64,000 nucleotides of DNA from an uncultured Actinomycetota bacterium (GCA_963703505.1 CAVPEL010000006.1:956541-1020540), one strand, 5' to 3'; shown: positions 46,270 through 62,423, counted from the stretch's first letter. The notes: generated by a model from the sequence alone, not told the origin. Program-made: numbers and translations.

Positions 46270-46746
46270 CTAGACCAGCGTCAGGGTGAGCACGCCGGTG
46301 TAGGTGCCGACCTTGGTGCTGCCGGGCACACCGAGCTTGAGCGTGCCGCCGCAGGTGAAGGCGCCTGCGCTGGTGCCGGCGCCGGAGGTGCACAGTGTCT
46401 TGCTGTTGGCGAGGCCGGTGCCGGTGCCCGGAATGGCCACCGCGCCGGCGGTCACCGCCGACCGCTGGCTCGGGATGGTCGGCAAGGTGCCGGAGGTGAC
46501 CTGCGCGTTCGGACCCCAGCCGAGGTTGTCGGCGAGGATCAGCCCGTTCGGTCCGACGAAGTCGCTCGTCTGGCCGGTGAGGCTCCAGCCCGCCCCTGTG
46601 CCGCGGCCGTCGGCGACGGTGACGTTGTTCAGGGCGCCGTCGACGAACTGGTCGAATCCGGTGAGGGTGACCGGCGGCATGGTGACCGCCGAGCTGGACA
46701 CCGACAGCGCCAGCTGACCCGGCTGCACGTCAGCCGTGATCACCTG
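46270..46746 (-). repeat. Shared C-terminal WxL-like module, copy A (pepX 1)
   Basis: The 3' 477 nt are homologous at both DNA and protein level to copies B-D. The 3' end is ...accagcgtcagggtgagcacgccggtgtaggtgcc... on the + strand. Confidence 0.85.
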
Positions 46747-48639
46747 GCTGTTCGCCGGCAGCCAGGCGTCCACCGGGTAGCCGACGATCGGCAGCGTCAC
46801 GCTGCTCTCGCCGAGCAGCACGGTCACGTTGGCGCGGGTGGTGGTGGCGATGGTGCGCCCGCTCTGGTTGCCGGCGATCACGATGCCGATCCGGTGTCCC
46901 GGCTTGAAGGTGTAGTCCTGCGGCAGCGCCTCCCAGCTCACGCTGAACTCTTCGCCGCGGACCAGCGGAACCTGCGACGTCAGCGATTGCCGGTGCGAGG
47001 CGTTGATCCAGCCACGCGAGACGACCTGGCTCGCCGCCGTCTTCGTGACGGTCTCGACCTTCTTGTAGCAAGCCGAGTCGTACGCGGTCGACTCGCCCCA
47101 GCAGTCGCTCGTGGTCAGGGTCCGCACGCCTTCACCGGAGCCGAGGTTGTCGACCCGGGTGTCGGTGCCGTAGTCGACGACCAGCATGGTGAGGTTGGTG
47201 TCGGTCTGATCGGCGATCGCGCGGATGTTGGCGATCGGCGTGCCGCTGAGCCGCACCGGCTTGTCCAGCACGGGGCTCAGGAACATGAGGCGGTTAGCGC
47301 TCGTCGAGGTGAAGTTGGCGGTCATCGTCGCCTCGGTCTGGTTCCCGTCCAGGAACTTCTGAGTGCCAGTCACGGGGGAGACCGTCAGCGTCCCGGGGCC
47401 GTCGGCGTTCGCCGGGCCGAGGCGCAGCACCTGCTGGTGCGTGCCGGGCAGCGGCCACGAGGGCTGGGTCTCCCACTGGTCCGGTCCAACTTCGATGTCG
47501 GCCTGCGGCTTGTCCATGATGCCGTTGTCGATGCCCTGCAGCCAGTAGTCGAGCCAGCGGTGCACGGTGTCCACCCAGTCGGCGCGGCGGTAGTCGAACG
47601 GGTCGACGTGGCCGTACTGGGACAGCCAGATCTTGCGCGGGACGTTGTTCTTGGCCAGCGCGTCCCACCAGTGGTCGACGTTGTCCATCTTGACGTTGAG
47701 GTCGTTGAGGCCGTGCACGATGAAGACGCTGGCCTTCACGTTGCTGGCGTCCTTGAGGAAGTTGCGGTCGTCCCAGAAGTCGTTGTAGTTGCCGGTGGTG
47801 GCCGCCGCACCTGCGGTGAGCGCAGCTCGCGCGGCAGCACACTTGTTCTTCTGCAGCGGGGAGTACACGACGTCGGCGAGGCTCAGCGGCTCGTGCCAGT
47901 TGGAGTAGCGCAGTCCGTTGGCCCGGTACCAGGTGTACTCGTTGCTGATGCCGCTGATCGGGATGATCGTGGCCAAGCCGTCGACCCCGGTCGCGGCGAG
48001 CCCGTTCACCAGCGCGCCGTCGTAGGACTTCCCGAATGCGCCCACCTTGCCGGTGGTCCAGCCCGCGCTGATCTCGGTGCCGGGGGCGGCGGTCTGTGCG
48101 GTGTAGGCGACGGCCCGGCCGTTCAACCAGTCGACGACCGCCTTCATGCTCCCCACGTCGTAGGGGCCACCGATGTCGACGCAGCCGTCCGACTTGCTCG
48201 TGCCAGCCATGTCCGGCTGCACGATGGCGTAGCCGCGCGGCACGAAGTAGTTGTCGTAGAAGAGCGGGAACTGCAGCGGATTCCCGTTGGCGTCATAGGT
48301 CTTCACCTGTGACTCGTTGCCCCGACCCAGTGAGCCGTAGTAGGGGCTCGGATCCATGATGACCGGGACCTTGAGTCCCTGCTCGGTCTCGCGCGGTCGG
48401 ACGATGTTGGTGGCGATCAGGTCGAGCTTGCCGTCTCCGTCGCCGTCGAAAGGCGCCTGCACCCAGACCTGTTCGCGGATCGCGTCCGCGAATGAGAAGA
48501 CTGGTTGCGTCACGCCGTCGTGCACGACGATCGACGGTGCTGCCGGCGCGGCCTGCGCCTGCTGCAGGGTGCCCAGCATCCCTGCGGCGAGTGCCGTCGT
48601 CGTCGCCAGGGCGACGCCGAGGCGCCAGGTTCGTTTCAT
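46270..48639 (-). CDS. pepX: Secreted Xaa-Pro dipeptidyl-peptidase (S15 family) with C-terminal WxL-like module (intact)
   Basis: ATG at 48639 (ggaagg RBS) gives MKRTWRLGVALATTTALAAG (signal). ...DGDGKLD...PVIMDPSPYY...DNYFVPRGYAIVQPDMAGT..S.GC, nucleophile motif GKSYDG. The last 158 aa are the shared module (VTVADGRGTGAGWSLTGQTSDFVGPNGLILADNLGW...GTYTGVLTLTLV). Confidence 0.88.
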   Translation of the reverse strand: MKRTWRLGVALATTTALAAGMLGTLQQAQAAPAAPSIVVHDGVTQPVFSFADAIREQVWVQAPFDGDGDGKLDLIATNIVRPRETEQGLKVPVIMDPSPYYGSLGRGNESQVKTYDANGNPLQFPLFYDNYFVPRGYAIVQPDMAGTSKSDGCVDIGGPYDVGSMKAVVDWLNGRAVAYTAQTAAPGTEISAGWTTGKVGAFGKSYDGALVNGLAATGVDGLATIIPISGISNEYTWYRANGLRYSNWHEPLSLADVVYSPLQKNKCAAARAALTAGAAATTGNYNDFWDDRNFLKDASNVKASVFIVHGLNDLNVKMDNVDHWWDALAKNNVPRKIWLSQYGHVDPFDYRRADWVDTVHRWLDYWLQGIDNGIMDKPQADIEVGPDQWETQPSWPLPGTHQQVLRLGPANADGPGTLTVSPVTGTQKFLDGNQTEATMTANFTSTSANRLMFLSPVLDKPVRLSGTPIANIRAIADQTDTNLTMLVVDYGTDTRVDNLGSGEGVRTLTTSDCWGESTAYDSACYKKVETVTKTAASQVVSRGWINASHRQSLTSQVPLVRGEEFSVSWEALPQDYTFKPGHRIGIVIAGNQSGRTIATTTRANVTVLLGESSVTLPIVGYPVDAWLPANSQVITADVQPGQLALSVSSSAVTMPPVTLTGFDQFVDGALNNVTVADGRGTGAGWSLTGQTSDFVGPNGLILADNLGWGPNAQVTSGTLPTIPSQRSAVTAGAVAIPGTGTGLANSKTLCTSGAGTSAGAFTCGGTLKLGVPGSTKVGTYTGVLTLTLV

Positions 48640-48753
48640 GCACAACCTTCCAGCGAGGCACCCATGAAGCCGCCGAAGACGTGCGGCAATTGCGACATTC
48701 GTTCAGCGGGGTGCGAGAAATGGACAGCCCTCACGAAAGGAGGATGATCACGC

Positions 48754-48782
48754 ACGCTAGGGAGGTAATACATTACTGTCAA
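48754..48782 (-). promoter_or_regulatory. Putative sigma-70-type promoter of pepX copy 1
   Basis: On the minus strand, cTTGACAgtaatg -17 nt- TAGCGT, about 110 nt upstream of the ATG. The -35 context CTTGACAGTnATG is shared with the pepX copy 2 promoter. Confidence 0.35.
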
Positions 48783-48799
48783 GGGTCTGCTCAAGAAAT

Positions 48800-48840
48800 A
48801 AAAGGAGTGGGGGCGCCGTGGTGGCGCCCCCACTCCTTTT
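48800..48840 (-). terminator. Rho-independent terminator after the M14 gene
   Basis: 18-bp stem aaaaggagtgggggcgcc / ggcgcccccactcctttt with loop gtggt. A/T runs lie on both flanks. Confidence 0.7.
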
Positions 48841-48867
48841 TGGGTGGTACGGGTGGTGCGGTGGTAC

Positions 48868-49341
48868 TTAGACCAGCGTCAGGGTGAGCACGCCGGTGTA
48901 GGTGCCGATCGCCGTGCTGCCCGGGACACCGAGCATCAGGGTCGCGCCGCACTGGAAGGCGCCACCGCTCGCACCGGCCGGTGCGGAGCACAGGCCACGA
49001 GCGTCACCGAGGCCGGCGCCGGCGACGGCAACCGCCCCGGGGGTGACGACCGGCGTGTGCGCCGGGTCGGCAGGCAGCGCGCCGGTGATGTTCACCGCGG
49101 CCGGGGACCAGCCGAGGTTGTTGGCCAGGATCAGCCCGTTCGGCCCGACGAAGTCGCTCACCTGGCCGGTGAGGTTCCACCCCGCGTTGGTGCCACGCGG
49201 GTCGGTGACCGTCACGTCGTTGAGCGCGCCGTTGACGACCTGGTCGAGACCGGTCAGCGTGACGTTGGGCATCGTGACGGTCGAGCCGCCCGGGATGCTC
49301 ATGGTCAGCGGGCTACCGCTGATGTCCGTCGTGATGACCTG
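48868..49341 (-). repeat. Shared C-terminal WxL-like module, copy B (M14)
   Basis: Begins ttagaccagcgtcagggtgagcacgccggtgtaggtgccga on the + strand, near-identical to the first 40 nt of copy A. Confidence 0.85.
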
Positions 49342-50772
49342 GTAGCCGCTCGCCCGGGCCGGCACGCGAACTTGCTGAAGCACTCGGCCAGGTTGACGTT
49401 CGCCTGCTGGTTGATGTCGACGAGGACGTTGACGGTCTGCAGGACCTCACCGCTCGGGTTCGAGCAGGTGAGCGTCCAGCTCTCCTGCAGGAACTTGCCC
49501 TCTGACGTCGCCACGACGCCGTTCTCGGTGTAGGCCGGCTGCGGCCGCACCGAGGGGTTCACGTGCCAGTTGAACGTGCCGGTGGTCGAAACGACGAGCG
49601 AGGACTCCAGGTGGGTGGGGACCCGCTCGGCCGGGCCGAACGTGTTGCCGGTCGCGGCCTTGACCGGCGACGGTCCACAGGTCGAAGTCCTTCGTGATCT
49701 TCAGCACGGCGCCGCGCGGAGCGTTGCCCTTGATGATCGAGTGACCCGCGGGGTTGGCGGCGTACTTCCAGGCGACCATGAACGCGTCCCGGTTGGACTT
49801 GCCCGCGTAGCGGCCGGTGCCGAGGTAGTCCTCGATGACCTCGGGGTAGGTGTTGTTGGTCGACTGGGTCTTCATGATCTCGAACGTGAAGGCGAGGCCA
49901 CGGGTCGCGTAGTAGGACCAGTCCGGGGTCTCACCGGTGGTCTCGTAGTCGAAGCCCGACTTCATGCCGGTGTAGCCGTTGACGCCGTGATCGCGTCGGA
50001 CAGGGCCGAGTAGACGCCTCGTCCGGGGTGTTGCCCGCGCGGACCTCCAGCGGCGGCCGGAGCACGGTGTGGCCGGAGGTGTGGTTGGTGACCAGCACGG
50101 TGACCTGGTGGCCGAGCGTCAGCTCCATGATGTTCTGGACCTCGGGCTCCGAGCCGGGCGCCGGGCCGCGCTGCACCGCGGTGGCGCCCGCGCCGCTGCC
50201 CCAGCCGAACGGGTAGTTGCGGTTGAGGTCGACGCCCTGCGCTGCTGGCGCACGTCGGCGACGTGCCGCAGCTGGTCCGGCGGTTGATGAGGAAGCCGTC
50301 CACGTTGACGACCGGCACGATGATGACGCGGGACTCGTTCAGAAGGCGGGTGATCTCCGGGTCGACGCCGTCGTTCTTCACGATGTCGTAGGCGAACTCC
50401 AGGGCGTGCTCACCGGAGGGCCACTCGTTGCCGTGGTGGATGCCCTGCATGAAGAAGACGGGCTTGCCGTCGGAGGCGTTGACGTCGTGCGTGATCTCGA
50501 TGCCGTAGACGTCGCGACCCTGGCGGGTCTGGTGCGGCAGCTTGATTGACTTCACCAGGTTGGGGTGAGCCGTGCTGAGCGCGAGCATCTCGTTGTTGTA
50601 GTCCGCGATGGTCGCGGTAGGTGGTCCGGCCGCTGGGCAGTTCCGTGGCGCCGGCGGCCTGCGCCGACGTCGCGAGCGGAACCAGCAGGCTCGCTGCCAG
50701 GCCGGCGCAGGCGGTGAAGGCGAGCGCGCGCCTCTTCGCGCCCAAGCGGCGCAGGGTGTGGGTTGCTGACAT
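48868..50772 (-). pseudogene. Secreted M14-family metallocarboxypeptidase with C-terminal WxL-like module; roughly 5 frame breaks
   Basis: MSATHTLRRLGAKRRALAFTACAGLAASLLVPLATSAQA (signal). IADYNNEMLALSTAHPNLVKSIKL...GRDVYGIEITHD...FFMQGIHHGNEWPSGEH (HxxE zinc motif)...IIVPVVNVDGF; further pieces in ORFs 49931, 49447 and 49305. The last 157 aa are the shared module (ORF 48868..49383). Confidence 0.8.
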
Positions 50773-50954
50773 GCTGCAAGGTCTCCTGACGGTGTCCCGA
50801 CGATGGGGCTGTACTTCGCTCCGTTCGGTGCCCGCGACCGCACGTCCGTGTGTCAGCGGTGGGCGTCGTGCAGTGTGCCGACGGCGCTCCCGCCGTCGTG
50901 GTGGTCCACCGATCCGCGATGCGGAGGGTGGAGATCACCGCCATCGATGGCCGA

Positions 50955-50983
50955 ATCTTGACCAAAGGTTCGATAAGTGTCAA
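50955..50983 (-). promoter_or_regulatory. Putative promoter of the M14 gene
   Basis: On the minus strand, aTTGACActtatcg -17 nt- CAAGAT, about 180 nt upstream of the ATG at 50772. Confidence 0.25.
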
Positions 50984-51281
50984 TAGATGCACGAAGGGTG
51001 TAGAGGTCTCCGGAGTGGCCGGGTCGTCGGTAGGAGCGACAAGCGTGTCCGTTAACGCACGCGCAATGTCCGGTTCATGCACATACGAGACCTTGACGTT
51101 CCACATACTCGTCCGGGACGATTCATGAGACTTTCCGTTCCAAAAGTCCGTCCCCGGCCGATCGCCACATGGTGATCGGCCTTAACCTTCGGCCCCGTTG
51201 TTGTCTCGGCCCGCGGATCTAGCAACGCCGCGCCGGGGGCTGCTGGACTCGGTTGCTAATGATCGCGGAGTGCGCACAGTG

Positions 51282-52436
51282 ATGAAGACGCCAGCTCGGT
51301 TCCGTCGCAAGGGTCTCGTCGCCGCGCTCCTGGGCGTCGCGGCGCTGACGCTCGGCGCCACCGCGATTCCGGCCTCGGCCCTGTCGGGCTCAACCGCTGC
51401 GGCCCCGGCCGCTCGGGCTTCGGCCGCCGGCGACGACTTCACCTGGGCGGTGCAGCCCTCGAGCCCGCAGGGCCCGGGCGGCCGGGACTACTTCATCCTC
51501 AGCGCGACGCCGGGCCAGGAGATGATCGACTACGTCGGTATCTCGAACCTGAGCGACAAGCCCGTCGAGTTCAAGGTCTACGCGACCGACGCGTTCACCA
51601 CCCAGGACGGCGCCTTCTCGCTGCTCGCCGGCGATTCGGCCCCGACCGATGTCGGTCAGTGGGTCGGCTTCGACGCTGGCACCTACACCGTGCCCGCCGG
51701 CAAGCGCCTGGACATCCCGTTCCGGCTGCAGGTCCCGCTCGACGCATCCCCTGGTGACCACATCGGGGGGATCGTCGCGGCCGTGGCGGCGACCGAGACC
51801 TCGGGCGACGGCAGCCAGCAGCTCACCGTCGACCGCCGTGTCGGAGCCCGCATCTACCTCCGTGTCGCCGGGCCCGCGCAGCCATCGCTGAAGATCAAGT
51901 CGATCCACGTCGGCTACAAGAGCTCGCTGAGCTCGCTGAGTCCGCTTGGTGTCACGACGGTCACCTACGAGGTGACCAACGACGGCAACGTGCGGCTGGC
52001 CGCGACGGCGAAGGTCCGGTTGGTCGGTCCCTTCGGGATCAAGCTCGGTAACGCGAAGGCCAACGAGATCCGCGAACTGCTGCCGCGCAGCTCCGTGACA
52101 GTGACCGAGACGATTCCGAACGTCATCGCCGCAGGCCGCATCAGCGCCGAGGTCAGCCTGGCACCGTTCGACCTCGGAGACAGCTCGACGGGCACCTTGA
52201 AGAGCGTCAACCGCGCCGGCTCCGCGTGGGCGATGCCGTGGCTGCTGCTCCTCGCCCTGGTGCTCGTTGCCGCGTTTGTCGTCTTCCGCGTGCGCCGCCG
52301 CAAGAACGGCGCGTCGACTGCCGGCGCGCCCCCGGCCTCCACCCCTGCGGAAGCCGACGCGGAGTCCTCGGACGCCGCTTCGACACCGGCACCGGCATCG
52401 GCCAAGACGCCAGAAAAGCCCGAGAGGGTTTCATGA
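51282..52436 (+). CDS. DUF916/DUF3324-like cell-surface protein with C-terminal TM anchor (CscA-like)
   Basis: MKTPARFRRKGLVAALLGVAALTLGATAIPASA (signal). FTWAVQPSSPQGPGGRDYFILSATPGQEMIDYVGISNLSDKPVEFKVYATDAFTTQDGAFSLL and WVGFDAGTYTVPAGKRLDIPFRLQVPLDASPGDHIGGI match the DUF916 pattern. C-terminal WLLLLALVLVAAFVVFRVRRRK plus an acidic/Pro-rich tail. Confidence 0.75.
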   Translation: MKTPARFRRKGLVAALLGVAALTLGATAIPASALSGSTAAAPAARASAAGDDFTWAVQPSSPQGPGGRDYFILSATPGQEMIDYVGISNLSDKPVEFKVYATDAFTTQDGAFSLLAGDSAPTDVGQWVGFDAGTYTVPAGKRLDIPFRLQVPLDASPGDHIGGIVAAVAATETSGDGSQQLTVDRRVGARIYLRVAGPAQPSLKIKSIHVGYKSSLSSLSPLGVTTVTYEVTNDGNVRLAATAKVRLVGPFGIKLGNAKANEIRELLPRSSVTVTETIPNVIAAGRISAEVSLAPFDLGDSSTGTLKSVNRAGSAWAMPWLLLLALVLVAAFVVFRVRRRKNGASTAGAPPASTPAEADAESSDAASTPAPASAKTPEKPERVS

Positions 52437-53455
52437 CCCCCCTCCTGCCGCAGTGCAGGAGGACCATGCTGACGGCCGTAGTGGCGGCGGCCGGTGCGCT
52501 CGCCATCGTGACCGCGGTGCCTGGGCACGCGTCAGTCGGCGGACAACCGGCTGTCAACCTCGACCGCACCGAAGCGGCAGTCGGCGAGACCGTGGCCGTC
52601 AGCTTCGTCGGCTGGGCCGCGGGTAACACCTACATCGAGATATGTGGGAACGAGGGCGCGCGTGGCTCGGTGGACTGCGACCTCGGCTCGGCGATCACGT
52701 CGTACACCGCTGAAGACGGGACCGGCCACGCGCTCCTGAAGGTCCAGGCGCCGCCGATCGGCTGTCCCTGCGTGGTGCGTGTCTCCGACCTGACCCAGTC
52801 TGTCGTCATAGCGACGCCGTTCGTGGTGACCGGCGTGCCCGTGCTGACGCCCGATGAGCGCCCGAGCGCGGCCACCTTCGAGCGCAAGCTGACCGTCGTC
52901 CGCGCGGAGCTCACGGGACACAGCGGGTGGAGCGCGTTGCTCGGCGCGTCCGGGCGGCGAACCCTCGTGCTGACCCTGCGCAACAGCGGGGGCGGCCCGG
53001 TCACCGACCCGTCGATGTCGCTTGCGGTGGGCAGGGGCGCCGCGGCGACCACCATCGTCGATCCGCCCGCGATCGGCCGCATCGCGGCCGGCGAAGAGAA
53101 GACGCTCGAGATCCCGGTCACGCTCGAGGTGCCGGCCTACGGTCGCTACACGGTCGAAGGGGAGATCGTCGGGCTCGACGAGGCGGTCACCTTCACCACG
53201 ACCACCAGCACCTACCCATGGGGGCTCCCCGTCCTCGGGCTCCTGGTGATCGGGCTCGTCGTCGCGTGGAAGCGCGTCAAGAAGCGGCTGCGGGGCCGTG
53301 GCGTCGCCGCAGGCGCTGTCGGCGAGCCCGCCCAGGGGAGCGCCGGGCGGGCCGCCGGTGGTACCGCGCTTAACCGGTTCATCGATCTGACGGGGAAGAA
53401 GCCGAAGGCCGGACGAATCATCGACCTGACCGACGCAGTCAGCTCCGACGACTGA
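52433..53455 (+). CDS. Secreted Ig/CARDB-like protein with C-terminal TM anchor, start/stop-overlapped with the DUF916 gene
   Basis: The ATG at 52433 overlaps the upstream TGA (ATGA). Signal MLTAVVAAAGALAIVTAVPGHA. Cys-containing beta domain, a CARDB-like LVLTLRNSGGGPVTDP segment, TM helix LPVLGLLVIGLVVAWKRVKKR and a cytoplasmic tail. Confidence 0.65.
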   Translation: MTPLLPQCRRTMLTAVVAAAGALAIVTAVPGHASVGGQPAVNLDRTEAAVGETVAVSFVGWAAGNTYIEICGNEGARGSVDCDLGSAITSYTAEDGTGHALLKVQAPPIGCPCVVRVSDLTQSVVIATPFVVTGVPVLTPDERPSAATFERKLTVVRAELTGHSGWSALLGASGRRTLVLTLRNSGGGPVTDPSMSLAVGRGAAATTIVDPPAIGRIAAGEEKTLEIPVTLEVPAYGRYTVEGEIVGLDEAVTFTTTTSTYPWGLPVLGLLVIGLVVAWKRVKKRLRGRGVAAGAVGEPAQGSAGRAAGGTALNRFIDLTGKKPKAGRIIDLTDAVSSDD

Positions 53456-53689
53456 GTCGCTCACAGGCACGCGTGGGGATTATCCGTCCGCGATCCACAA
53501 GGTGGCTCGCGATGGGCACAGTGCAAATGAATTGTGGCGACCAGTGATGGCCCGTAAACGGTCGCCTCGACCGGTAACACAGGGTAGTCAAGCGACAGCA
53601 CAATGTGACTGCGTTCGAGGACTATTTGGCCCGTTGTGGAACGGGAAACTCGTCCGGGGCGGAAAACGGGAGCAGTCGGTCAAAAAGTC

Positions 53690-53719
53690 TTGACAGTCAT
53701 GATCGCGCCCCAATAGTGT
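53690..53719 (+). promoter_or_regulatory. Putative sigma-70-type promoter of pepX copy 2
   Basis: cTTGACAgtcatg -18 nt- TAGTGT, about 165 nt upstream of the ATG at 53889. Confidence 0.35.
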
Positions 53720-53888
53720 CCGCGAGCCATCGCTCGATGGCGATGACTATCGCTTACCGCCTTGATGGGCATTGACACCGGTTTCAAGCGCACACGCGCG
53801 AAGCCGGATAGTCGGCATTCTCGAGGAATTGGCGACGTCTCGCCATGAGAGACCATTCCCCGTTCATATCTGCCTAGGAAAGGTGTAA

Positions 53889-56274
53889 ATGAAGCGATCC
53901 TGGCGTTTCGCTGTCGCTCTCGCGACATCGACGGTCCTGAGCGCGAGCGTGGTGAGTGCACTGCCCGCAGCGGCTGCCACCCCCGCGTCGATCGTCGTCG
54001 AGAACGGCCTCACTCAGCCCGTCTTCAAGTACGCGGACGCGATCCGCGAGTTCGTCTGGGTCAAGACCAACCTGGACAACGACGGCAACGGCATCCCCGA
54101 CATGATCCGGGTCGACATCATCCGGCCCGCGGAGTCCCAAGGTGGCGCGCTCAAGGTGTCGTCCATCATGGATGCGAGCCCGTACTACACCAGCCTGGGC
54201 CGCGGCAACGAGTCGCAGCTCAAGACCTACGCGGCCGACGGCACCGTCAGCCGCTTCCCGCTCGCCTTCGACAACTACTTCGTGCCCCGCGGCTACGCGA
54301 TCGTCCAGCCGGACATGGCGGGCACCGCCGGGTCGACCGGCTGCGTGGACATCGGCGGCCCCGAGGACATCGGCGGCATCGTCGCCGTCATCGACTGGAT
54401 GAACGGGCGCGCACAGGCCTACTCCAACGTCGATGGCACCGGCGACCCCGTCAGCGCGGACTGGTCGAACGGCAAGGTCGGCATGATCGGCAAGTCCTAC
54501 GACGGCACGCTCGCCAACGGCGTGGCGGCGACCGGCGTCGAGGGCCTGAAGACCATCGTGCCGATCAGCGCGATCGACAGCTGGTACAACTACTACCGGA
54601 TGAACGGCGCGCGCACGACGGGCACGTCGCTGCCCGCCTGCCTCGCCAACACGGTCCGCGCCGGATGGCGCTACAACGGCTACAAGGGCGCGTCCTGCAC
54701 CGCGGTCAACGCCGAGCTCACCGCCGGCAACTCCACGAGCGGTGACTTCACCCCGTTCTGGGACGCGCGCGACTACACCAAGAACGCGGACAAGGTGAAG
54801 GCGAGCGTGCTGCTCATCCACGGCTGAACGACCTCAACGTCAAGCCGATGAACATGGACCGCTGGTGGGACGCGCTGGCCGCCAACAACGTCCCCCGCCA
54901 GATCTGGGTCCACCAGTACGCGCACACGGACCCGTTCGACATCTCGCGGACCGAGTGGATGACCACGCTGCACCGCTGGTACGACTACTGGCTGAACGAT
55001 GTCCAGAACGGCATCATGAACGAGCCGATGGCCACCATCCAGACCGGGATCAACACGTTCGAGAAGGCGACCAACTGGCCGATCCCGAACGCGCACGACG
55101 TCGATGCTGAAGTTCACGCGCGGGCACCACCAGCAACACCGGTGACCTCACCTCCACCACGCCCGGCGGGACGCTGTCGTTCACTGGCACCAGCCAGACC
55201 GAGGCGAACATGGTCGCCAACCCGACCAACGCGTCGACCACGCCGTCTGGCGTTCCTGTCGCCGGTGCTGGACAAGGACGTGCGGATGAGCGGCAACGCG
55301 AAGATCGACCTCAACATCTCGTCCACCCAGGCCGACGGCAACCTGACCTTCATGGTCGTCGACTACGGTTCCGAGGCGCGGATCAACTGGAGCAACAGCC
55401 TCGGCGGTCTCACCCAGCTCACGTCAGCAAGTCGTGCATCGGCGACTCCACCGCGACCGACTCGGCGTGCTACTTCGAGACCGTGCCGGCGACGACGACG
55501 GCCGCGAGCTCGATCCTGGCTCGCGGCTGGTTCAACGTCCAGCACCGCGACTCGCTGACCTCGCAGACGGCGATGCCCGTCGACACGCCGACCCAGGTCA
55601 GCTGGGCCAGTATGCCGCAGGACTACACCATCAAGGCGGGTCACCGGATCGGTGTCATCATCGGTGGCAACGACAGCAGTTACGTCACCAACATCACGCC
55701 GACGCCGACCTTCACGGTCGACCTGGCGTCGAGCAGCGTGACGCTGCCGATCGTCGGCTACCCGGTCAGCCAGTGGCTGCCGGAAGGCACCGGGTTCCAG
55801 ACCATCACGGCGGATGTGCAGCCGGGTCAGCTGGCCCTGTCGGTGCCCAACGCGCTGGTGACGCTTCCCTCCGTCACGCTCACCGGATATGACCAGTTCG
55901 TCACCGGTGCGCTGAACCAGGTGACCGTCGCGGACGGTCGCGGGACGTCGGCGGGCTGGAGCCTGACCGGCCAGGTGAGCGACTTCGTCGGGCCGAACGG
56001 TCTGATCCTGGCGGACAACCTCGGCTGGGGTCCGACCGCACAGAGCGTGACCGGCGCACTGCCGACCACGTCGAACGTCGAGTCCGTCGTCACGGCGGGC
56101 CCGGTGACGACGCCCGGCACAGGCACCGGTCTGGCTGACGCCAAGTCGCTGTGCACCTCTCGCTCCGGCGCGAGCGCCGGAGCGTTCCAGTGCGGTGGCT
56201 CGCTCAACCTGGGTATCCCGGGCGCCACGTCCCTGGGTACCTACACAGGGGTTCTCACGCTGACCCTGATCTAG
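53889..56274 (+). pseudogene. pepX: Second secreted Xaa-Pro dipeptidyl-peptidase (S15) with C-terminal WxL-like module; roughly 4 frame breaks between 54820 and 55430
   Basis: MKRSWRFAVALATSTVLSAS... is collinear with copy 1 (SSIMDASPYY, DNYFVPRGYAIVQPDMAGT, GKSYDG). Pieces lie in ORFs 53889, 54848 and 55210. Ends in the shared module ...VTVADGRGTSAGWSLTGQVSDFVGPNGLILADNLGW...GTYTGVLTLTLI. Confidence 0.85.
55798..56274 (+). repeat. Shared C-terminal WxL-like module, copy C (pepX 2)
   Basis: QTITADVQPGQLALSV...GTYTGVLTLTLI. Well over half the residues appear identical to copy A on inspection of the translations (not formally computed). Confidence 0.85.
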
Positions 56275-56286
56275 CTCGCTCATCCC

Positions 56287-56333
56287 GAAAAGGGAGTGGA
56301 GGACGCCGACATGGCGTCCTCCACTCCCTTTTC
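56287..56333 (+). terminator. Rho-independent terminator after pepX copy 2
   Basis: 21-bp stem gaaaagggagtggaggacgcc / ggcgtcctccactcccttttc with loop gacat. Confidence 0.7.
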
Positions 56334-56510
56334 ATTGGGCGGTCGACGGAGTCCGGCAGTGCCAACGGACGTGATGGGACGAGCACTGTCGCGGCGGCCA
56401 CGGCGGCGGCGCGGCCGACGCGAGCGGCGCGTGCGGCACCGGCATACTGAGGGCATGCAGATCACACACACCCGTGGGCGTAGCCCTGCGCCGGCCTGCC
56501 AGGTCAGCCT

Positions 56511-57059
56511 GTGACGGCAACGGTGGCGGGGGAGGGCGCGTCGGTGGCCGGTCGGGCGCCTGAGGGTGCACCTGTTCCTGTCGAGGCTTCCCGCATCGAG
56601 CTCAGCCGCATCATGTCCTTGCTGGACGCCAACCTGCACGGCAACGTGCACGGTGGCACCATCATGCGCATGGTGGACGAGACCGCCGGAATCGTGGCCT
56701 CACGCCACACCGGTGGTCTGGCGGTGACCGCCGTGGTCGATGAGATGCAGTTCCTCGTCCCGGTCCACGTCGGCGACATCGTGACCTGCCGGTCGCAGAT
56801 CAACTGGACTGGGCGTACCTCCTGCGAGGTGGGGGTCCGGGTGACCGCCGAACCGTGGGACGAGGCCGGCACGACCCCTCGGCACGTGGCCACGGCGTAT
56901 CTGGTGTTCGTCGGCATCGACGCCGAGGGCAGGCCGCGGGCGATCCCGCAGGTGCTGATGGAGGCCGACAACGACCAGCGGCGCTACCGCGAGGCGGAGA
57001 TCCGTCGCGGCACGCGGTTGGACCGCCGCGAGGCGATCGCGGACTCCCGTCGCGTCTGA
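56511..57059 (+). CDS. Acyl-CoA thioesterase (hotdog fold, YciA/BFIT-like)
   Basis: ...LLDANLHGNVHGGTIMRMVDETAGIVASRH...AVTAVVDEMQFLVPVHVGDIV.... The start is uncertain (GTG 56511). Confidence 0.8.
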   Translation: MTATVAGEGASVAGRAPEGAPVPVEASRIELSRIMSLLDANLHGNVHGGTIMRMVDETAGIVASRHTGGLAVTAVVDEMQFLVPVHVGDIVTCRSQINWTGRTSCEVGVRVTAEPWDEAGTTPRHVATAYLVFVGIDAEGRPRAIPQVLMEADNDQRRYREAEIRRGTRLDRREAIADSRRV

Positions 57060-57118
57060 CTGACCTCGACCCGCGCTGCCTCGTCCGGTGCGCAGCGGGG
57101 CGCATCTGACCAGACATG

Positions 57119-57155
57119 GATGTGGGGAGGGAGCGATGCGCTCCCTCCCCACATC
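57119..57155. terminator. Bidirectional hairpin between the thioesterase and the S8 gene
   Basis: 17-bp stem gatgtggggagggagcg / cgctccctccccacatc with loop atg. Confidence 0.65.
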
Positions 57156-57172
57156 GTGGGTCCGACCTCCGC

Positions 57173-57652
57173 CTAGATGAGCGTGAGGGTGAGGACGCCG
57201 GTGTAGGTGCCGACCCTGGTGCTGCCCGGGATGCCGAGCTTCAGGTCGCCACCGCAGGTGAACGCTCCACCACTCACGCCGGCAGCGGAACTGCACAGGT
57301 TGCGCGCGTTGGCCAGACCGGTGCCGGAGCCGGGGACTGCCGGCGCGCCGGCGGTGACCTCGGTGGCTTCACCAGGAGCGGCCGGCAGGGTGCCGGACAC
57401 CACCTGTGCGGTGGGGTTCCAACCGACGTTGTCGGCCACGATCAGCCCGTTCGGGCCGACCAGGTCACTGGCCTGCCCGACGAGGTTCCAGCCAGCGCTG
57501 GTGCCACGCGGGTCGACCACGGTGACGGGGTGGAGGGTGCCCGAGATGACGAGATCGAATCCGGTCAGCGTCGTCTGCGGGAGGGTGATCGTGCTACCGG
57601 CGGGCACGGTCAGGGCCAGCGGTGCGCCCTTGATGTCCGCCGTGATGACCTC
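57173..57652 (-). repeat. Shared C-terminal WxL-like module, copy D (S8)
   Basis: EVITADIKGAPLALTV...GTYTGVLTLTLI. The most divergent of the four copies. Confidence 0.85.
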
Positions 57653-59158
57653 GAAGCCGCTGCCCGGCCCGGGGTCGTAGGCGGCGGTCACTGCCTGGTA
57701 CGCGTTGACGAGCCCGTAGCCGAAGTAGCCGTTGTAGCCGGGAATCAGCCGGTCCTTGCCCGCGGGTGCCTGGCAGGTGGTGGCTGTGCTCGGGCAGGCA
57801 AGCGCTTCAGCCTGTGCGTGCAGCATCTGCGTCAGCTGCGCGGGTGTGGCCTGCGGGTGCGTGGCCTTCAGCAGCGCTGCTACCCCCGCCACGTGCGGAG
57901 AAGCCATCGACGTACCGGACTTGTTCCCATAGCCGCCTCCCGGCACCGTTGATCTGGTGGAGCTACCGGGGGCCGCGACGTTGATGACCCCAAGGCCATA
58001 GCTGGAGAACGAGGCCTTGGCCTTGGTGTTGGTCGTCGCGGACACGTTGACGACGCCGGGCAGCTGGCCCGGGACATCGAGGCAGCCGACGACCGGCCTG
58101 TTCTTTGTCGCGGTCGTGTCGTTCGGGCTGTTCGACTCGGTCTTGAGGTTGGCCAGGTCGTAGTTGTCGTTGCCGGCGGCCGCGACGTTGAGCACCCCGC
58201 GACGGGCCGAGTAGTCGACCGCACGCTTGACGGCTTCCATGGCGGGCGCCTGGTTCGCCTGGTCGGGGCACCAGAAGAACCACGGGTCCACGTTGTAGCT
58301 GTTGTTGGTCACCGAGAAGCCGTGCTCGGCCGCCCACACGAAACCGCAGATCGCGTACTCGGGGTAGATGAACCCATCGGGGTTGACCACCTTGACGGAG
58401 GCGATGCGCGTATTGGGCGCGATACCGATCATGTTCTGGCCGATGTCGTTGGCTGCGATCGCTCCAGCGACGTGAGTTCCGTGCGAGTCGGTCACGTTCT
58501 TCGAGCTGACCCATGGACGCCAGGAGTTCGGGGTCGTGTCGACCTTGCCACCGTTGTTGATGCAGCTGACCGAGTCTGCGGCATCGAAGGTCGGCTTAAG
58601 GGCAGAGTGGGTGTCGTCCACGCCGTCGTCGAGGACGCCGACGATGACGCTGCTGCTCCCCTTGGTCACCTGGTGGGCCTGGTCCACGCCGATGACCGTC
58701 ATGTCCGCGCCATAGACGCCGTTCGCGGTGGTAGTGGCGGGTGGCGCCGGGACGAACGGATTGCCGGGCGCCGGCTCCGTGAACGCCGCGGTCCTGGTCG
58801 GGCCGGCCGACTGGATGTCCGGATCGAGGGCCTTGATGTTGGCAAGGAACTCGGTGTCGGTGGAGTGGGCGATCAAGACGCCGATCTGCGGGTAGGACAC
58901 CTTGACGGTGCCGCCGGCGGCGTTCACTGCTGTTTCGGCGTCCCTGACCGCGGCGCGGGTGGCCGCGGTGTTGATCGCGTAACTCATCAGCGGGCCGTTC
59001 GCCTGCACGGCCCGTACCAGCTGCGGCGCACTCGTGGTCGCGGTTTCCGACGTCGCGGCCCACGCTCCGCCTGGCAGCACCGCGAACGCGATGGTGATGG
59101 CGCCCGCGGCCGCGATCGGGGCGCGGAGTCTCCGCCACCCCTGAATCTTTGTGCCCAT
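57173..59158 (-). CDS. Secreted S8 subtilisin-family serine peptidase with C-terminal WxL-like module (intact)
   Basis: ATG at 59158 after gaaggga. Signal MGTKIQGWRRLRAPIAAAGAITIAFAVLPGGAWA, an inhibitor-I9-like propeptide, and the catalytic triad motifs VGVLDDGVD, HGTHVAG and GTSMASPHVAG. The last 159 aa are the shared module (VTVVDPRGTSAGWNLVGQASDLVGPNGLIVADNVGW...GTYTGVLTLTLI). Confidence 0.9.
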   Translation of the reverse strand: MGTKIQGWRRLRAPIAAAGAITIAFAVLPGGAWAATSETATTSAPQLVRAVQANGPLMSYAINTAATRAAVRDAETAVNAAGGTVKVSYPQIGVLIAHSTDTEFLANIKALDPDIQSAGPTRTAAFTEPAPGNPFVPAPPATTTANGVYGADMTVIGVDQAHQVTKGSSSVIVGVLDDGVDDTHSALKPTFDAADSVSCINNGGKVDTTPNSWRPWVSSKNVTDSHGTHVAGAIAANDIGQNMIGIAPNTRIASVKVVNPDGFIYPEYAICGFVWAAEHGFSVTNNSYNVDPWFFWCPDQANQAPAMEAVKRAVDYSARRGVLNVAAAGNDNYDLANLKTESNSPNDTTATKNRPVVGCLDVPGQLPGVVNVSATTNTKAKASFSSYGLGVINVAAPGSSTRSTVPGGGYGNKSGTSMASPHVAGVAALLKATHPQATPAQLTQMLHAQAEALACPSTATTCQAPAGKDRLIPGYNGYFGYGLVNAYQAVTAAYDPGPGSGFEVITADIKGAPLALTVPAGSTITLPQTTLTGFDLVISGTLHPVTVVDPRGTSAGWNLVGQASDLVGPNGLIVADNVGWNPTAQVVSGTLPAAPGEATEVTAGAPAVPGSGTGLANARNLCSSAAGVSGGAFTCGGDLKLGIPGSTRVGTYTGVLTLTLI

Positions 59159-59488
59159 CCTGTTCCCTTCGCCCACCTGTCGTGCGCGGTGCGACCGGGT
59201 CTAGCAGCCTCTCAGCTGCGCCCGGAAGATCAGCGCCATGGACTTAACCGGACACGAAGTGTGTAGCCATCGGAAACAGCACGTCAATGATTTTGTTAAG
59301 AAACCCCTCAAGTGGCTCAATCGCGGTGCCGACAACCCTAAGTTGGCGACGTGAGGCCAAGAATCGGTTAACAGCGACCAATGCGTGTAACAAGGCGTCG
59401 ATCGATGGGCCAATCACAGCCCGATGAGGGGCTCGCGCGACCGCCCGTGGGCGTTGCGGGGCGGGCCAGGGCTTGCCATCCACGAGCG

Positions 59489-60163
59489 CTACACCGAAGC
59501 GAGCGCTCCGAGCGGCATCTCGATCGGGGCGGTCGGCACGGCGAGCTCTGGGCCGGTGGCCGCACGGACCTCGTCCACGCTGACGCCGGGCGCGACCTCG
59601 CGCAGCACCAGCCCGGTCGGCGTCACGTCGACGACGGCCAGGTCGGTGATGATGCGCTCGACCACGCCGCGGCCGGTCAGCGGCAGGGAGCAGGACTCGA
59701 CGATCTTGTGGGTGCCGTCCTTGGCCACGTGCTCCATGAGGACGATGACCTTCTTGGCGCCATGCACGAGGTCCATCGCCCCGCCCATGCCCTTGATCAT
59801 CTTTCCGGGAATCATCCAGTTGGCGAGGTCCCCGGTGGCCGACACCTGCATGGCACCCAGGATCGCCGCGTCGATGTGCCCGCCGCGGATCATGCCGAAG
59901 GACAGCGCCGAGTCGAAGAACACCGCACCCGGCAGCAGGGTGACGGTCTCCTTGCCGGCGTTGATGAGGTCGGGGTCTTCCTCGCCGTCGAACGGGTACG
60001 GCCCGACGCCGAGGATGCCGTTCTCCGACTGCAGCGTCACGTGGACGCCGGGCAGCAGGTAGTTGGGCACCAAGGTGGGAAGTCCGATGCCGAGGTTCAC
60101 GTAGGCACCGTCGGCCAGCTCCAGCGCGGCCCGGGCCGCCATCTGCTCGCGGGTCAGTGTCAT
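59489..60163 (-). CDS. scoB: 3-oxoacid CoA-transferase subunit B
   Basis: [32 protein letters not shown]...SENGILG...[15 protein letters not shown]...GDLANW...GMGGAMDL. The ATG overlaps the scoA TGA by 1 nt. Confidence 0.9.
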
Positions 60164-60921
60164 CAGGACTCCCTTGGCCGGGTGGTGCGACGTTCGATCC
60201 GCTTCTCGCCGCCGGGCGGCACGACGACGAGGTGCTGCACGAAGATGCCGGGCAGGTGGATCGCATCCGGGTCCAGCTCGCCGGGCTCGACGAGCTCTTC
60301 GACCTCGGCGATGGTGACCTTGCCGGCCATCGCGGCGAGCGGGTTGAAGTTGCGGGCGCTGGAGTTGAAGACCAGGTTGCCGAGGCGGTCGCCGCGGGCG
60401 GCGCGGACCAGTGCGAAGTCGCAGGTGATCGCCTCTTCCAGGACGTACTCGCGACCGTCGAAGGTGCGGGTGTCCTTGCGCGGTGAGCCGACAGCGATCG
60501 AGCCGTCCGCCGCGTAGCGCCACGGCAGCCCGCCCTCGGCCACCTGGGTGCCGACTCCGGTCGCCGTGTAGAACGCGGGAATGCCGGTGCCGCCGGCGCG
60601 CAGCCGCTCGGCCAGGGTGCCCTGCGGGGTGAGCTCGACCTCCAGCTCCCCGGCCAGGAACTGCCGGGCGAACTCCTTGTTCTCGCCCACGTAGGACGAG
60701 GTCATCCGCGAGATCCTCCTGGCGGAGAGCAGCAGGCCCAGTCCCCAGTCGTCGACCCCGCAGTTGTTCGAGACGACGCCCAGATCCTTGGTTCCCGCCG
60801 CGAGCAGAGCTTCGATGAGCACCTGCGGGATGCCGCACAGGCCGAAGCCGCCGACGGCCAGCGTGGCCCCATCCGGGATGTCAGCGACGGCCTCGGCGGC
60901 GCTGGCAAGCACCTTGTCCAT
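60163..60921 (-). CDS. scoA: 3-oxoacid CoA-transferase subunit A
   Basis: 252 aa. [32 protein letters not shown]...SNNCG...[21 protein letters not shown]. Confidence 0.9.
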
Positions 60922-61005
60922 GCGCGCATGCTCCTTCGACGAGGCGGTGGGCGTGCGCCGAGCCTAATGGGCGAGCAGCCGTCGCGCCCGAGCCGGGCCG
61001 ATGGA

Positions 61006-62423
61006 TCAGATGCAGGTGCTGTCGCCGGCACTGAGCGTCTTCACCGGTGCGGGGGGAGCGGACGGCAGTGGCTGCGCGCCGGTCCAGTCCGGGCCGAGGA
61101 TCAAGGTGAGCGTGGAGCCGAGCGACGGGTCGAGCACCAGCTGGGTGCCGGCCGGGCCCACCGCGGCGAGCGTGCGCGCGGAGTCGGCCTTGTCCGGGCC
61201 GTAGCGCACGACCGTGGTGGCCGAGGGGTCCGGTGCGGTAGCCACGCTGGCCACGTTGAAGCCGGCGGCGGTGAGCGCCTCACCCGTGGCGCGCGCGAGT
61301 CCCTGGGTCGACGTGCCGTTGAGCACCTCAACGGTGATCTTCGACGCGTCCACGGTGAGCGGCGTCGCCGAGGGAGCCGGCGAGCTACCGGGGGAGGGCG
61401 TCGCCCCGGGCAGCGCCGTGTCGTTGCGCAACGCCTCCCACACCCCGGTCGCGGCGTCCGTCCAGACCACCCGGTTGGCGTCGGCCGGAGACGGCTTGTT
61501 GGGGATCGTCAGAAAGGCGACGTTCTCCGGCTTCAAGTTCTTCAGCCGCTTGGCGAGGTTGAGCATGCTGTCGCCCTTGGCCAGATCGGTGTCGACCGTC
61601 ACCGAGTTGGTGGCCGCCTCCAGGAACGGCAGCAGCTTGTCGGGGCGCAGCAGCAGGCCGGTGTCGGTGGCCTCGCGGACCACGGCCGACAGGAACTGCT
61701 GCTGGCGGGTGATCCGCTCCAGGTCGCTGCCGCCACCGATGCTGCTTGCGGGCCCGGACCAGGGCGAGCGCCTGGTCGCCCTTGACCCGCTGTTCGCCGG
61801 CCTTGAGGTTCAGCCCGGCGTCACCGTCCTTCAGGTTCTTGCAGAGGTTGACCGGGATCCCGTCGAGCGCCTCGGTCATCTTCTTGAAGCCGGAGAAGTC
61901 GACCTCGACGTAGTGGTCGATCCGGATGTTGGTCAGGGCCTCCACCGTCTTGACCGAGCAGGTCGGACCGCCCAGGTTGAACGCCTCGTTGATCATGCGG
62001 AGCTTGGCGGTGGTCTGCTTGCCGTTCGGCAGCGGGCAGCTGGGCATCTCGACCACGGAGTCGCGCGGGATGCTGACGAACACGCCGTGCTTCGCGTCGG
62101 CCGAGATGTGGGCGAGGATCATCGTGTCCGACTCGTGCTGGGTCTGCTGCTCTAGGCCCTTGCCGGCCTGGTACTGCGCGTTGTCGCCCTGGGTGCGGTC
62201 GTCGGAGCCGATGAGCAGGATGTTCATCGCCTTGCCGGCGGACTCTCGCCTTGGTCGGCGAGTCCGGCCGGTCCGGCGCGAAGACGTCGACGTGCTTCAC
62301 GTTGCCCAGGTAGTGGTGGTACAGCGTGTAGACCCCGCCGGTGGCGAGTACCGCAAGAGCGAGCAGGCTGATCCCGACCCGGGCCAGGATGCGACGCATC
62401 CGGTGGGAGTGTCGCTCGGCCAT
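61006..62423 (-). pseudogene. LytR-CpsA-Psr (LCP) family phosphotransferase with LytR_C domain, copy 1; 2 frame breaks
   Basis: MAERHSHRMRRILARVGISLLALAVLATGGVYTLY (TM) | MNILLIGSDDR...SDTMILAHI...VSIPRDS...IDHYVEVDFSGFKKM..ALDGIPV | ...ERITRQQQFLSAVVRE...ITVEVLNGTSTQGLA. Confidence 0.85.

Follow-up and report, generated by a model that had tools for sequence, protein, structure and literature searches.

We examined a 64,000-nucleotide stretch of one strand from an uncultured Actinomycetota bacterium (GCA_963703505.1, CAVPEL010000006.1:956541–1020540; hereafter the window, numbered from its first letter), in which a first-pass annotation had proposed a 13-kb surface-display cluster of six genes. 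Four of these encode secreted peptidases with a common C-terminal module resembling the WxL domain of Firmicutes, and the other two encode the membrane-anchored proteins C and D. We consider it reasonably probable that the locus represents an actinobacterial form of the csc-type (WxL/WxLIP) surface system, carrying hydrolases instead of adhesins.

Organization of the locus

The proposed cluster was recovered with all six genes, but they do not form an uninterrupted block, as a 4HBT thioesterase gene lies among them. The surface genes and their module copies are as follows.

46270–48639, minus strand: gene A, S15 X-Pro dipeptidyl-peptidase with WxL-like module (789 amino acids, intact open reading frame; Pfam/NCBIfam)
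about 46270–46761, minus strand: module copy in gene A
48868–50772, minus strand: M14 zinc carboxypeptidase with WxL-like module, frame broken at seven sites
about 48868–49350, minus strand: module copy in the M14 gene
51282–52436, plus strand: gene C, WxLIP-type anchor (384 amino acids; Pfam, AlphaFold2, Foldseek and hhalign)
52433–53455, plus strand: gene D, transmembrane-anchored surface protein (340 amino acids), putatively coupled to C
53889–56274, plus strand: second S15 X-Pro dipeptidyl-peptidase with WxL-like module, at least four frame changes
about 55783–56274, plus strand: module copy in the second S15 gene
57173–59158, minus strand: gene F, S8 subtilase with WxL-like module (661 amino acids, intact open reading frame; Pfam)
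about 57173–57667, minus strand: module copy in gene F

Of the six sets of coordinates first assigned, those of A, C, D and F coincide exactly with the gene calls of the deposited genome, a 1.06-Mb contig, where all four products form singleton 90% clusters, whereas the M14 and second S15 genes are not single open reading frames. The peptidase assignments stood: Pfam returned Peptidase_S15 with PepX_C for both S15 genes, Peptidase_M14 and Peptidase_S8 at the expected places, and inspection of the translations placed Sec-type signal peptides on all six surface products, including every peptidase as previously stated. Gene A matched Peptidase_S15 (1e-55) and PepX_C (2.7e-29), scored 656 bits against the NCBIfam Xaa-Pro dipeptidyl-peptidase model (cutoff 642) and carries the motifs GKSYDG, HGLNDLNV and GHVDP. 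Fragments of the M14 gene matched Peptidase_M14 (3.5e-22) and WxL (2.2e-4), and those of the second S15 gene Peptidase_S15 (1.7e-45), PepX_C and WxL (8.4e-3). Gene F, identical to gene call P0018, matched Peptidase_S8 (4.8e-44) and the module hidden Markov model (HMM; 1.4e-70), with the triad motifs DDG, HGTHVAG and GTSMASPHVAG in its translation. Catalytic motifs are thus present in the S8, S15 and M14 enzymes, the last judged from its ortholog. Assignment of the S8 protease as a type VII mycosin was rejected (132 bits against a cutoff of 279).

The remaining features of the region (46.2–59.2 kb) and its right flank, in a window with a guanine–cytosine content of 67–70%, are listed below.

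48800–48840, minus strand: strong intrinsic-terminator-like hairpin (18-bp stem, 12 GC pairs, T-run)
50773–51281, no strand assigned: divergent intergenic region of 509 bp between the M14 gene and the C–D operon, presumed to hold promoters
53690–53717, plus strand: sigma-70-like promoter match TTGACA-16-AATAGT upstream of the second S15 gene, a consensus match only
56511–57059, plus strand: 4HBT (hotdog) thioesterase gene (Pfam), cytoplasmic product, between the second S15 and S8 genes
59489–62227, minus strand: right flank, CoA-transferase subunits A and B and an LCP gene (LytR_cpsA_psr + LytR_C)

The hairpin lies directly 3' of the M14 stop codon, between the M14 and gene A transcripts. A sequence scan of 50773–51281 found no consensus promoter; the intergenic stretch before C–D is ~88% conserved relative to L048, a 4.8-kb contig of a close relative (Logan ERR14825773) with an intact M14-module gene (blastn of L048 1–2030 against window 49145–51152: 88.6%). 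The thioesterase is of the acyl-CoA type, lacks a signal peptide and is unrelated to the surface system. Within 13 kb, four module genes and one WxLIP gene occur with at most two genes separating neighbours; provided the module counts as WxL, this agrees with the definition of a WxL cluster as at least one WxLIP and at least two WxL genes within four genes. At least two further module proteins of this genome (P0003 and P0007) are encoded outside the window.

The C-terminal module and the anchored proteins C and D

The common terminal module, first described as ~158 amino acids long, was confirmed at ~160 amino acids and closes all four peptidases. Pairwise identity is 62–74%, mean column identity 75% and 78 columns are invariant, and the consensus string derived in the first-pass annotation matches the alignment. 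Between the module and the protein's C-terminal end there are 0–4 residues, both in the four window copies and in ~60 related open reading frames, save a few fragmentary or truncated ones. A profile search recovered 4,124 cluster representatives of the module family at 50% identity (E≤1e-3), 1,510 of them at E≤1e-10; in the best 150 of the 4,124 the module nearly always reaches the C-terminus, and small module proteins of 160–210 amino acids occur elsewhere in the family.

The only family matched by the module is Pfam WxL (PF13731/IPR027994; gathering threshold 25 bits). The comparison with this profile, suggested at the outset, succeeded in part: three window copies match at 22.1 (gene A, 1.7e-4, residues 673–790), 21.8 and 16.6 bits, but all lie under the threshold and the S8 copy in gene F gave no Pfam WxL match. 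Among relatives, at E≤1e-3, PF13731 matched 35 of 101 family representatives (best E 3e-11) and 25 of 62 genome-locus proteins, with L002 (27.2 bits) and P0141 (25.6 bits) exceeding the threshold. The supposed resemblance to WxL received firmer support from profile–profile alignment against 15 canonical Firmicute sequences (11 small and four large WxL proteins from annotated Enterococcus, Bacillus and Melissococcus plasmids, one of which scores 134 bits on Pfam WxL): hhalign aligned 143 modules to this set with a probability of 97.7% and E 1.5e-12 over 111 columns, from V-x-V-x-D-x-R-G-T-x-x-G-W-x-L through the distal motif.

Published determinants of the first WxL motif are Asp at W-8, Arg at W-6 and a GTxAG turn (PMC9772566). 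In the proximal motif of the window copies, V-x-V-x-D-x-R-G-T-x-A-G-W-(S/N)-L, these residues and the defining W and L are invariant; in the wider alignment (A2), D, R and W never vary, while G, T and G are at least 90% conserved. The distal WxL motif is YxxxLTWxLxxxP (PMC5817068). Here it reads Y-T-G-V-L-T-L-T-L-(V/I)-stop, with Leu for Trp and the xxxP extension missing, and the canonical Y..tLtW.L aligns in register with YTatLTLTL, so that the second W-x-L had rightly been described as degenerated to L-T-L. Any W near the C-terminus was found in two of 139 family representatives, and the family-wide replacement of Trp by Leu probably explains why these domains are usually overlooked by standard annotation. 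Judged by sequence, the module is homologous to WxL and is a divergent WxL domain. Its motif-to-motif spacing of roughly 98 residues is nearer that of the small WxL type, which differs in topology from the large type (Hassan & Williamson, PMC9772566). The AlphaFold2 model of the module is all-beta with a predicted local distance difference test (pLDDT) of 92; a Foldseek search with it against the Protein Data Bank (PDB) returned nothing below E 1e-3, the best matches being chaperone-usher pilin subunits, namely FimG, PapA, the PapG pilin domain, CfaE and CS20 (E 0.005–0.1, template modelling (TM) score about 0.4).

Gene C is a true WxLIP (DUF916) homolog. Its product, whose translation carries WAMPWLLLLALVLVAAFVVFRVRRRK, matches WxLIP_PGBD (DUF916, PF06030) at 45 bits against a gathering threshold of 27.3, and comprises in order a signal peptide, the DUF916/PGBD domain, a second Ig-like domain, a single C-terminal transmembrane helix, as expected of a WxLIP, and a low-complexity cytoplasmic tail. 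The AlphaFold2 model (pLDDT 84) has beta-sandwich domains at 55–195 and 203–317 and helices at 10–25 and 320–343, the latter being the membrane helix that had been foreseen; in both C and D, basic residues follow the single C-terminal transmembrane helix (inspection). The best Foldseek match was PDB 9i1y, a WxLIP of Enterococcus faecium (E 4.7e-13; ~280 columns over both domains, TM-score 0.61 normalised by target), followed by 9i25_C, with identities to the E. faecium WxLIP structures of only 16–18%. Later matches were RbmA and the PapD-like chaperones CfaA, CupB2, PapD, CsuC and EcpB (E about 1e-7). A C-family profile matched the EfmWxLIP1 sequence at E 4.9e-7, and hhalign of the C family against canonical WxLIP gave 97.1% and E 6.3e-11 in an alignment confined to the PGBD, which took in the YF-x-L strand motif at the N-terminus. 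NCBI already names homologs of C in Micromonospora, Salinispora, Streptomyces, Dactylosporangium, Microbacterium and Acidimicrobiia 'WxL protein peptidoglycan domain-containing protein' or 'DUF916'.

Gene D had been described as a start/stop-overlapped, membrane-anchored Ig-like partner of C, and this was borne out: the two overlap by ATGA at 52433–52436, from which D is predicted to be translationally coupled to C. Its product has a Cys-rich N-terminal beta domain, an Ig-like (CARDB-like) second domain, a YPWGL motif and a transmembrane helix; C71, C82, C111 and C113 are invariant in the family alignment (A6). D matched no Pfam family, and NCBIfam gave a weak match to the neocarzinostatin-type chromoprotein fold (E 1e-4). 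Comparison of the C and D families by hhalign (96%, E 4.5e-9) covered the second Ig-like domain, the PW motif and the transmembrane helix. D is a novel paralog of the membrane-proximal half of C that bears a Cys-rich head. It was also considered as an analog of CscD/LPXTG proteins, which was rejected because D has no sorting signal and is anchored by a transmembrane helix instead. Thirteen D homologs were found in close relatives, Actinomadura and some Streptomyces, and C–D adjacency is kept in L047, L048 and L049, the last (Actinomadura flavalba) with a WxL-weak protein directly upstream of C–D. Neither phmmer nor blastp detected a D homolog in the 46 genome loci described below, which makes D an accessory, lineage-restricted component. 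The C–D pair is more divergent from L048 (window 51154–53462 against L048:2118–4438; 75% nucleotide identity, synonymous divergence (dS) 0.53–0.67, ratio of nonsynonymous to synonymous divergence (dN/dS) about 0.28–0.30) than the adjacent M14 coding sequence (92%, dS 0.24, dN/dS 0.15), a difference that may reflect allele exchange or a more rapid evolution of the putative receptors.

Related loci and cargo in Actinomycetota

A scan with the module profile, using one genome per species, yielded 46 loci, all in Actinomycetota, with hosts including Compostimonas, Dactylosporangium, Streptomyces, Streptacidiphilus, Amycolatopsis, Actinoplanes, Ornithinimicrobium and Acidimicrobiia. The co-occurrence of the module with DUF916 homologs, which the first-pass annotation had proposed to survey, held for most of them: a C homolog lies within 10 kb of a module gene in 33 of the 46, across several actinobacterial orders and usually on the same strand. 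This module–C adjacency is conserved across Actinobacteria. The C homolog is usually immediately downstream, with its start within 100 nucleotides of the module gene stop. Many loci combine two module genes with one C, fitting the cluster definition of PMC10599100, and L048 retains the order of a leftward M14-module gene, rightward C and D, and a leftward module gene.

Cargo is varied. Among the 62 genome-locus proteins, GH18 occurs in 13, PBP_like_2 in nine, Big_3_5 in 14 and S8 in four, and HtaA is the cargo of seven of the 101 family representatives; S15, M14, M64, metallophosphatase, GH20, arabinofuranosidase, PNGase A, PhoX and neocarzinostatin-like domains were also found. Compostimonas suwonensis DSM 25625 (L001) carries an operon of a C homolog, an M64 peptidase-module gene and an S15 peptidase-module gene, and Dactylosporangium spp. 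(L002–L007) carry two GH18-module genes with C. These clusters share with the window the module family (58% and about 53% identity, respectively), the C family and hydrolase cargo, and Compostimonas additionally resembles it in having a multi-peptidase set that includes an S15 enzyme. They differ in being compact operons on a single strand that have two cargo genes and lack a D homolog, whereas the four peptidases of the window belong to three families and are placed divergently and convergently about C–D.

The architecture is hence not unique to this locus. The claim that it was undescribed stands for the literature, in which our search found no paper describing actinobacterial WxL enzyme display, a Trp-less motif or enzyme cargo, but WxL-like clusters loaded with enzymes are widespread among the public genomes of Actinobacteria. 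A supplementary table of Hassan et al. 2023 lists DUF916 and WxL entries from Actinobacteria, and NCBI/UniRef names are already WxL-related for the C family and at least one module protein.

In some Pseudonocardiales loci, C is followed downstream by a small transmembrane-anchored protein or by a sortase substrate of the LAxTG type. In Amycolatopsis (L014:12265–13632 and L034:11662–13611), the proteins encoded 3' of the WxLIP homolog terminate in LAYTG, then a hydrophobic stretch, then RRRR; this tail was noted as a class-E sortase sorting signal, by which these proteins correspond in Actinobacteria to the LPXTG protein found in WxL clusters of Firmicutes. In Actinomadura flavalba (L049:6350–11233, KB894093.1), an operon of WxL-weak, WxLIP-like and D-like genes adjoins a neocarzinostatin-domain protein gene and lies by a FecCD/Peripla_BP_2/ABC transporter of the iron-siderophore type and an integrated element (integrase, RepSA, FtsK/SpoIIIE). 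The frequency of HtaA haem-binding cargo in the module family was noted alongside this transporter.

Proposed docking of module-bearing hydrolases and rival explanations

Clusters of the csc type were described by Siezen 2006 (PMC1534035) and defined as combinations of WxL and WxLIP genes in PMC9772566 and PMC10599100. As in the WxL clusters of Enterococcus, Listeria and Lactiplantibacillus, a C-terminal WxL-family domain is carried here by several secreted proteins per WxLIP, next to a membrane-anchored DUF916 protein with two Ig-like domains and a transmembrane helix; the proximal D-x-R-GTxAG-W-x-L is conserved and the distal motif is in register. The host phylum differs, being Actinomycetota where about 91% of known WxL sequences are in Firmicutes, as do the ending of the protein directly after a Leu-substituted distal motif, the extra transmembrane-anchored paralog D, the placement of module genes outside the operon of the WxLIP gene and the cargo. 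Firmicute WxL proteins had been described at the outset as mostly non-enzymatic, which agrees with published work: the large ones carry adhesin-type domains rather than enzymes (PMC9772566), whereas the cargo here is catalytic (S8, S15 and M14) instead of adhesin, leucine-rich repeat or Ig domains. As a possible Firmicute case of enzyme cargo we considered E. faecium plasmid pDMEA1 (L052:3229–4596), where a gene for LPMO_10 (lytic polysaccharide monooxygenase), fn3 and CBM5/12 domains lies inside a canonical WxL/LPXTG/WxLIP locus; it was rejected because the protein bears CBM5/12 instead of WxL.

In Firmicutes, proteins are brought to the surface by their WxL domain, which binds peptidoglycan non-covalently, and binding of WxL proteins to the cognate DUF916 protein has been shown in vitro, including for the E. 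faecium WxLIP (PMC5817068). An AlphaFold prediction has a hairpin strand of WxLIP completing the WxL sandwich (PMC10599100), and a WxLIP bound to a long WxL has been crystallised, as far as the record of PDB 9i25 describes it (with 9i1y, WxLIP alone; released 2026-01-28). By analogy, the four peptidases would be exported by Sec, and the ~160-residue beta-sandwich module, a divergent WxL domain that keeps the proximal D-x-R-GTxAG-W-x-L and has Y-x-x-x-L-T-L-T-L distally, would dock on the ectodomain of membrane-anchored C, where a strand of the DUF916 domain would probably complete the module sandwich as in the E. faecium WxLIP–WxL pair. D, which is co-translated and has a head of another, disulfide-rich kind, may serve as a further docking site. 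The S8 endopeptidase, the two S15 X-Pro dipeptidyl-peptidases and the M14 carboxypeptidase would then be held at the envelope, perhaps in contact with peptidoglycan, and might cooperate in freeing peptides and amino acids next to the cell. The non-covalently tethered multi-enzyme complex suggested by the first-pass annotation is likewise an inference. Both partners of PDB 6k73 were matched, the pilin side (weakly) by the module and the chaperone side by C; a pilin-like module and a chaperone-like C are consistent with strand complementation, the module side being weak. Cargo in relatives is made up of nutrient-acquisition proteins that act near the envelope, which fits a tethering tag. The PstS-like and HtaA-like binders of the wider family need proximity to membrane transporters, so that a tether fits them better than free secretion. 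The cellulosome cohesin–dockerin system, in which a small module shared by diverse enzymes docks to an anchored scaffold, and chaperone-usher donor-strand complementation, whose pilins and PapD-like chaperones show a weak fold likeness to the module and to C, respectively, are analogies and not homologs: no cohesin, dockerin or usher domains were detected here, and the scaffold has a single binding domain rather than repeats.

Several observations weigh against a WxL/WxLIP-type display system at this locus. Of the two Trp residues that give the domain its name, the distal one is lacking throughout the family. The top 50 Foldseek matches of the module model did not include the WxL chain of 9i25, and PDB sequence searches with module profiles A2 and A4 and with P0141 returned no WxL chain, A4 being dominated by signal-peptide columns. 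Because of this non-retrieval and the 16–18% identity of C, the binding mode of 9i25 does not transfer with confidence to the module and C. The DUF916/DUF3324 pattern attributed to gene C was upheld by sequence in its first half only: DUF3324 (PF11797), part of Firmicute WxLIPs, matched neither C nor the precomputed Pfam annotation of 120 homologs, the hhalign alignment with WxLIP ends at the domain boundary, and the second beta-sandwich (203–317) corresponds to DUF3324 in position and fold alone. The four module genes lie in separate transcription units with the unrelated thioesterase gene interspersed. The module HMM matches just the four peptidase-fused copies in the 64-kb window, with no small domain-only WxL, whereas Firmicute clusters have small and large WxL together (PMC9772566); translations of C, D and their neighbours contain no LPXTG/LAXTG sorting signal, and the small LPXTG-anchored CscD-type protein of csc clusters (Siezen 2006) is missing from the cluster. 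In this assembly the reading frame is broken in two of the four peptidase genes. An adjacent C is missing in 13 of the 46 module loci, and in the relative JGI 3300044667 (L047 and L050) the C–D pair and the module genes lie on different contigs and are not adjacent.

The last two observations also suit an arrangement in which the module binds the wall or substrate on its own, whether peptidoglycan or another envelope polymer, with C and D merely co-inherited surface proteins that have a separate role. Acting in trans and needing no other protein, the E. faecalis WxL domain indeed binds both peptidoglycan and cells (Brinster 2007, summarised in PMC5817068). We nonetheless regard this as unlikely given the tight, usually same-strand neighbourhood of module and C across several orders, the binding of WxL by the E. 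faecium WxLIP in vitro (PMC5817068) and, going by the same PDB record, in the 9i25 crystal, and the structural matches, pilin-like and weak for the module and chaperone-like for C, which suggest complementation. Those same Foldseek matches could be read as identifying the module as a polymerising or secretion-related pilin-like domain and C as a periplasmic-type chaperone for fibre assembly. This appears very improbable: the module matches are weak, no usher-like gene occurs in the window or as a conserved neighbour in the 46 related loci, a domain fused to binding proteins and large globular enzymes is not what a fibre subunit would look like, the best matches of C are by far the WxLIP structures, and the sequence-profile evidence for WxL is strong.

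The frame breaks raise a different alternative, namely that the cluster is decaying, with the M14 and second S15 genes true pseudogenes and only one S15 and one S8 protease left to share a tail by chance. Relative to its intact L048 ortholog, to which it is 92% identical, the M14 gene has indels at 50613, 50240, 50016/50014, 49987, 49670, 49365 and 49348, six of them single-base and 50016/50014 a -2/+1 pair; in the second S15 gene, onto which gene A maps by tblastn in three frames, there are at least four frame changes (54824, ~55125, ~55250 and ~55420), whereas A, C, D and F, together 6.5 kb, are intact. However, the lesions are all very short, that at 54824 being a C missing in GGCCTG (a base lost from the CC run), and the frame-corrected M14 sequence shows a dN/dS of 0.15 against L048 with no nonsense codons. 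A codon-position Viterbi frame plot across the window placed many same-strand frame switches at 19–64 kb and none at 1–19 kb, an unevenness that can be counted towards decay and that suggests either an unevenly polished long-read assembly or widespread pseudogenisation. Ordinary chromosomal genes also seem frame-broken, namely UDP-glucose dehydrogenase-like and acyl-CoA dehydrogenase-like open reading frames (translation only) and an LCP-family gene (Pfam), which favours assembly error. It is thus quite likely that the M14 and second S15 breaks are assembly indels rather than real decay, and a decaying cluster seems rather doubtful.

Returning to display of hydrolases by a WxL/WxLIP-type system, a wider formulation is possible, which we hold more tentatively. 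In it, Actinobacteria would have a large and so far unrecognised system for displaying enzymes, in which a Trp-less WxL tag would attach its cargo of hydrolases and substrate binders (peptidases, chitinases, hexosaminidases, phosphatases, PstS-like proteins and HtaA haem binders) to membrane-anchored WxLIP-type receptors via strand complementation, in a sortase-independent, cellulosome-like manner, with D-type alternative receptors and with themed clusters, proteolytic here and in Compostimonas and chitinolytic in Dactylosporangium. Studies of WxL and WxLIP systems have so far dealt almost solely with their part in adhesion and virulence of Lactobacillales, and what they do biochemically is still unclear. 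If catalytic and substrate-binding cargo is tethered as proposed, the function of the family would widen from host adhesion to nutrient acquisition, an explanation would be offered for how many secreted actinobacterial hydrolases with an unannotated C-terminal tail could stay at the envelope, and a compact (~160 amino acids) tag and receptor pair would be at hand for surface display in industrial actinomycetes. Most members fall under the Pfam WxL threshold, probably for want of the distal Trp, which leaves a gap in annotation. The findings suggest a mechanism, little studied so far, by which Actinobacteria would retain feeding enzymes at the cell surface, of interest chiefly for its breadth and its testability in a cultured type strain, Compostimonas suwonensis DSM 25625, which has a simple three-gene version.

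Elsewhere in the window, examples of frame switches lie at 19.0–20.8, 22.6–23.6, 24.5–25.4, 38.3–39.0, 44.0–44.5, 45.8–46.0 and 61.7–62.2 kb, and the LCP (LytR_cpsA_psr + LytR_C) wall-polymer ligase gene of the right flank appears divided over two frames. At 3298–12865 (plus strand), two very large overlapping open reading frames of 974 and 2470 amino acids with Big_3_5, DUF11/CARDB and PKD-like domains encode a giant surface protein devoid of a WxL-like module, possibly as one gene split by a frameshift near 5560.

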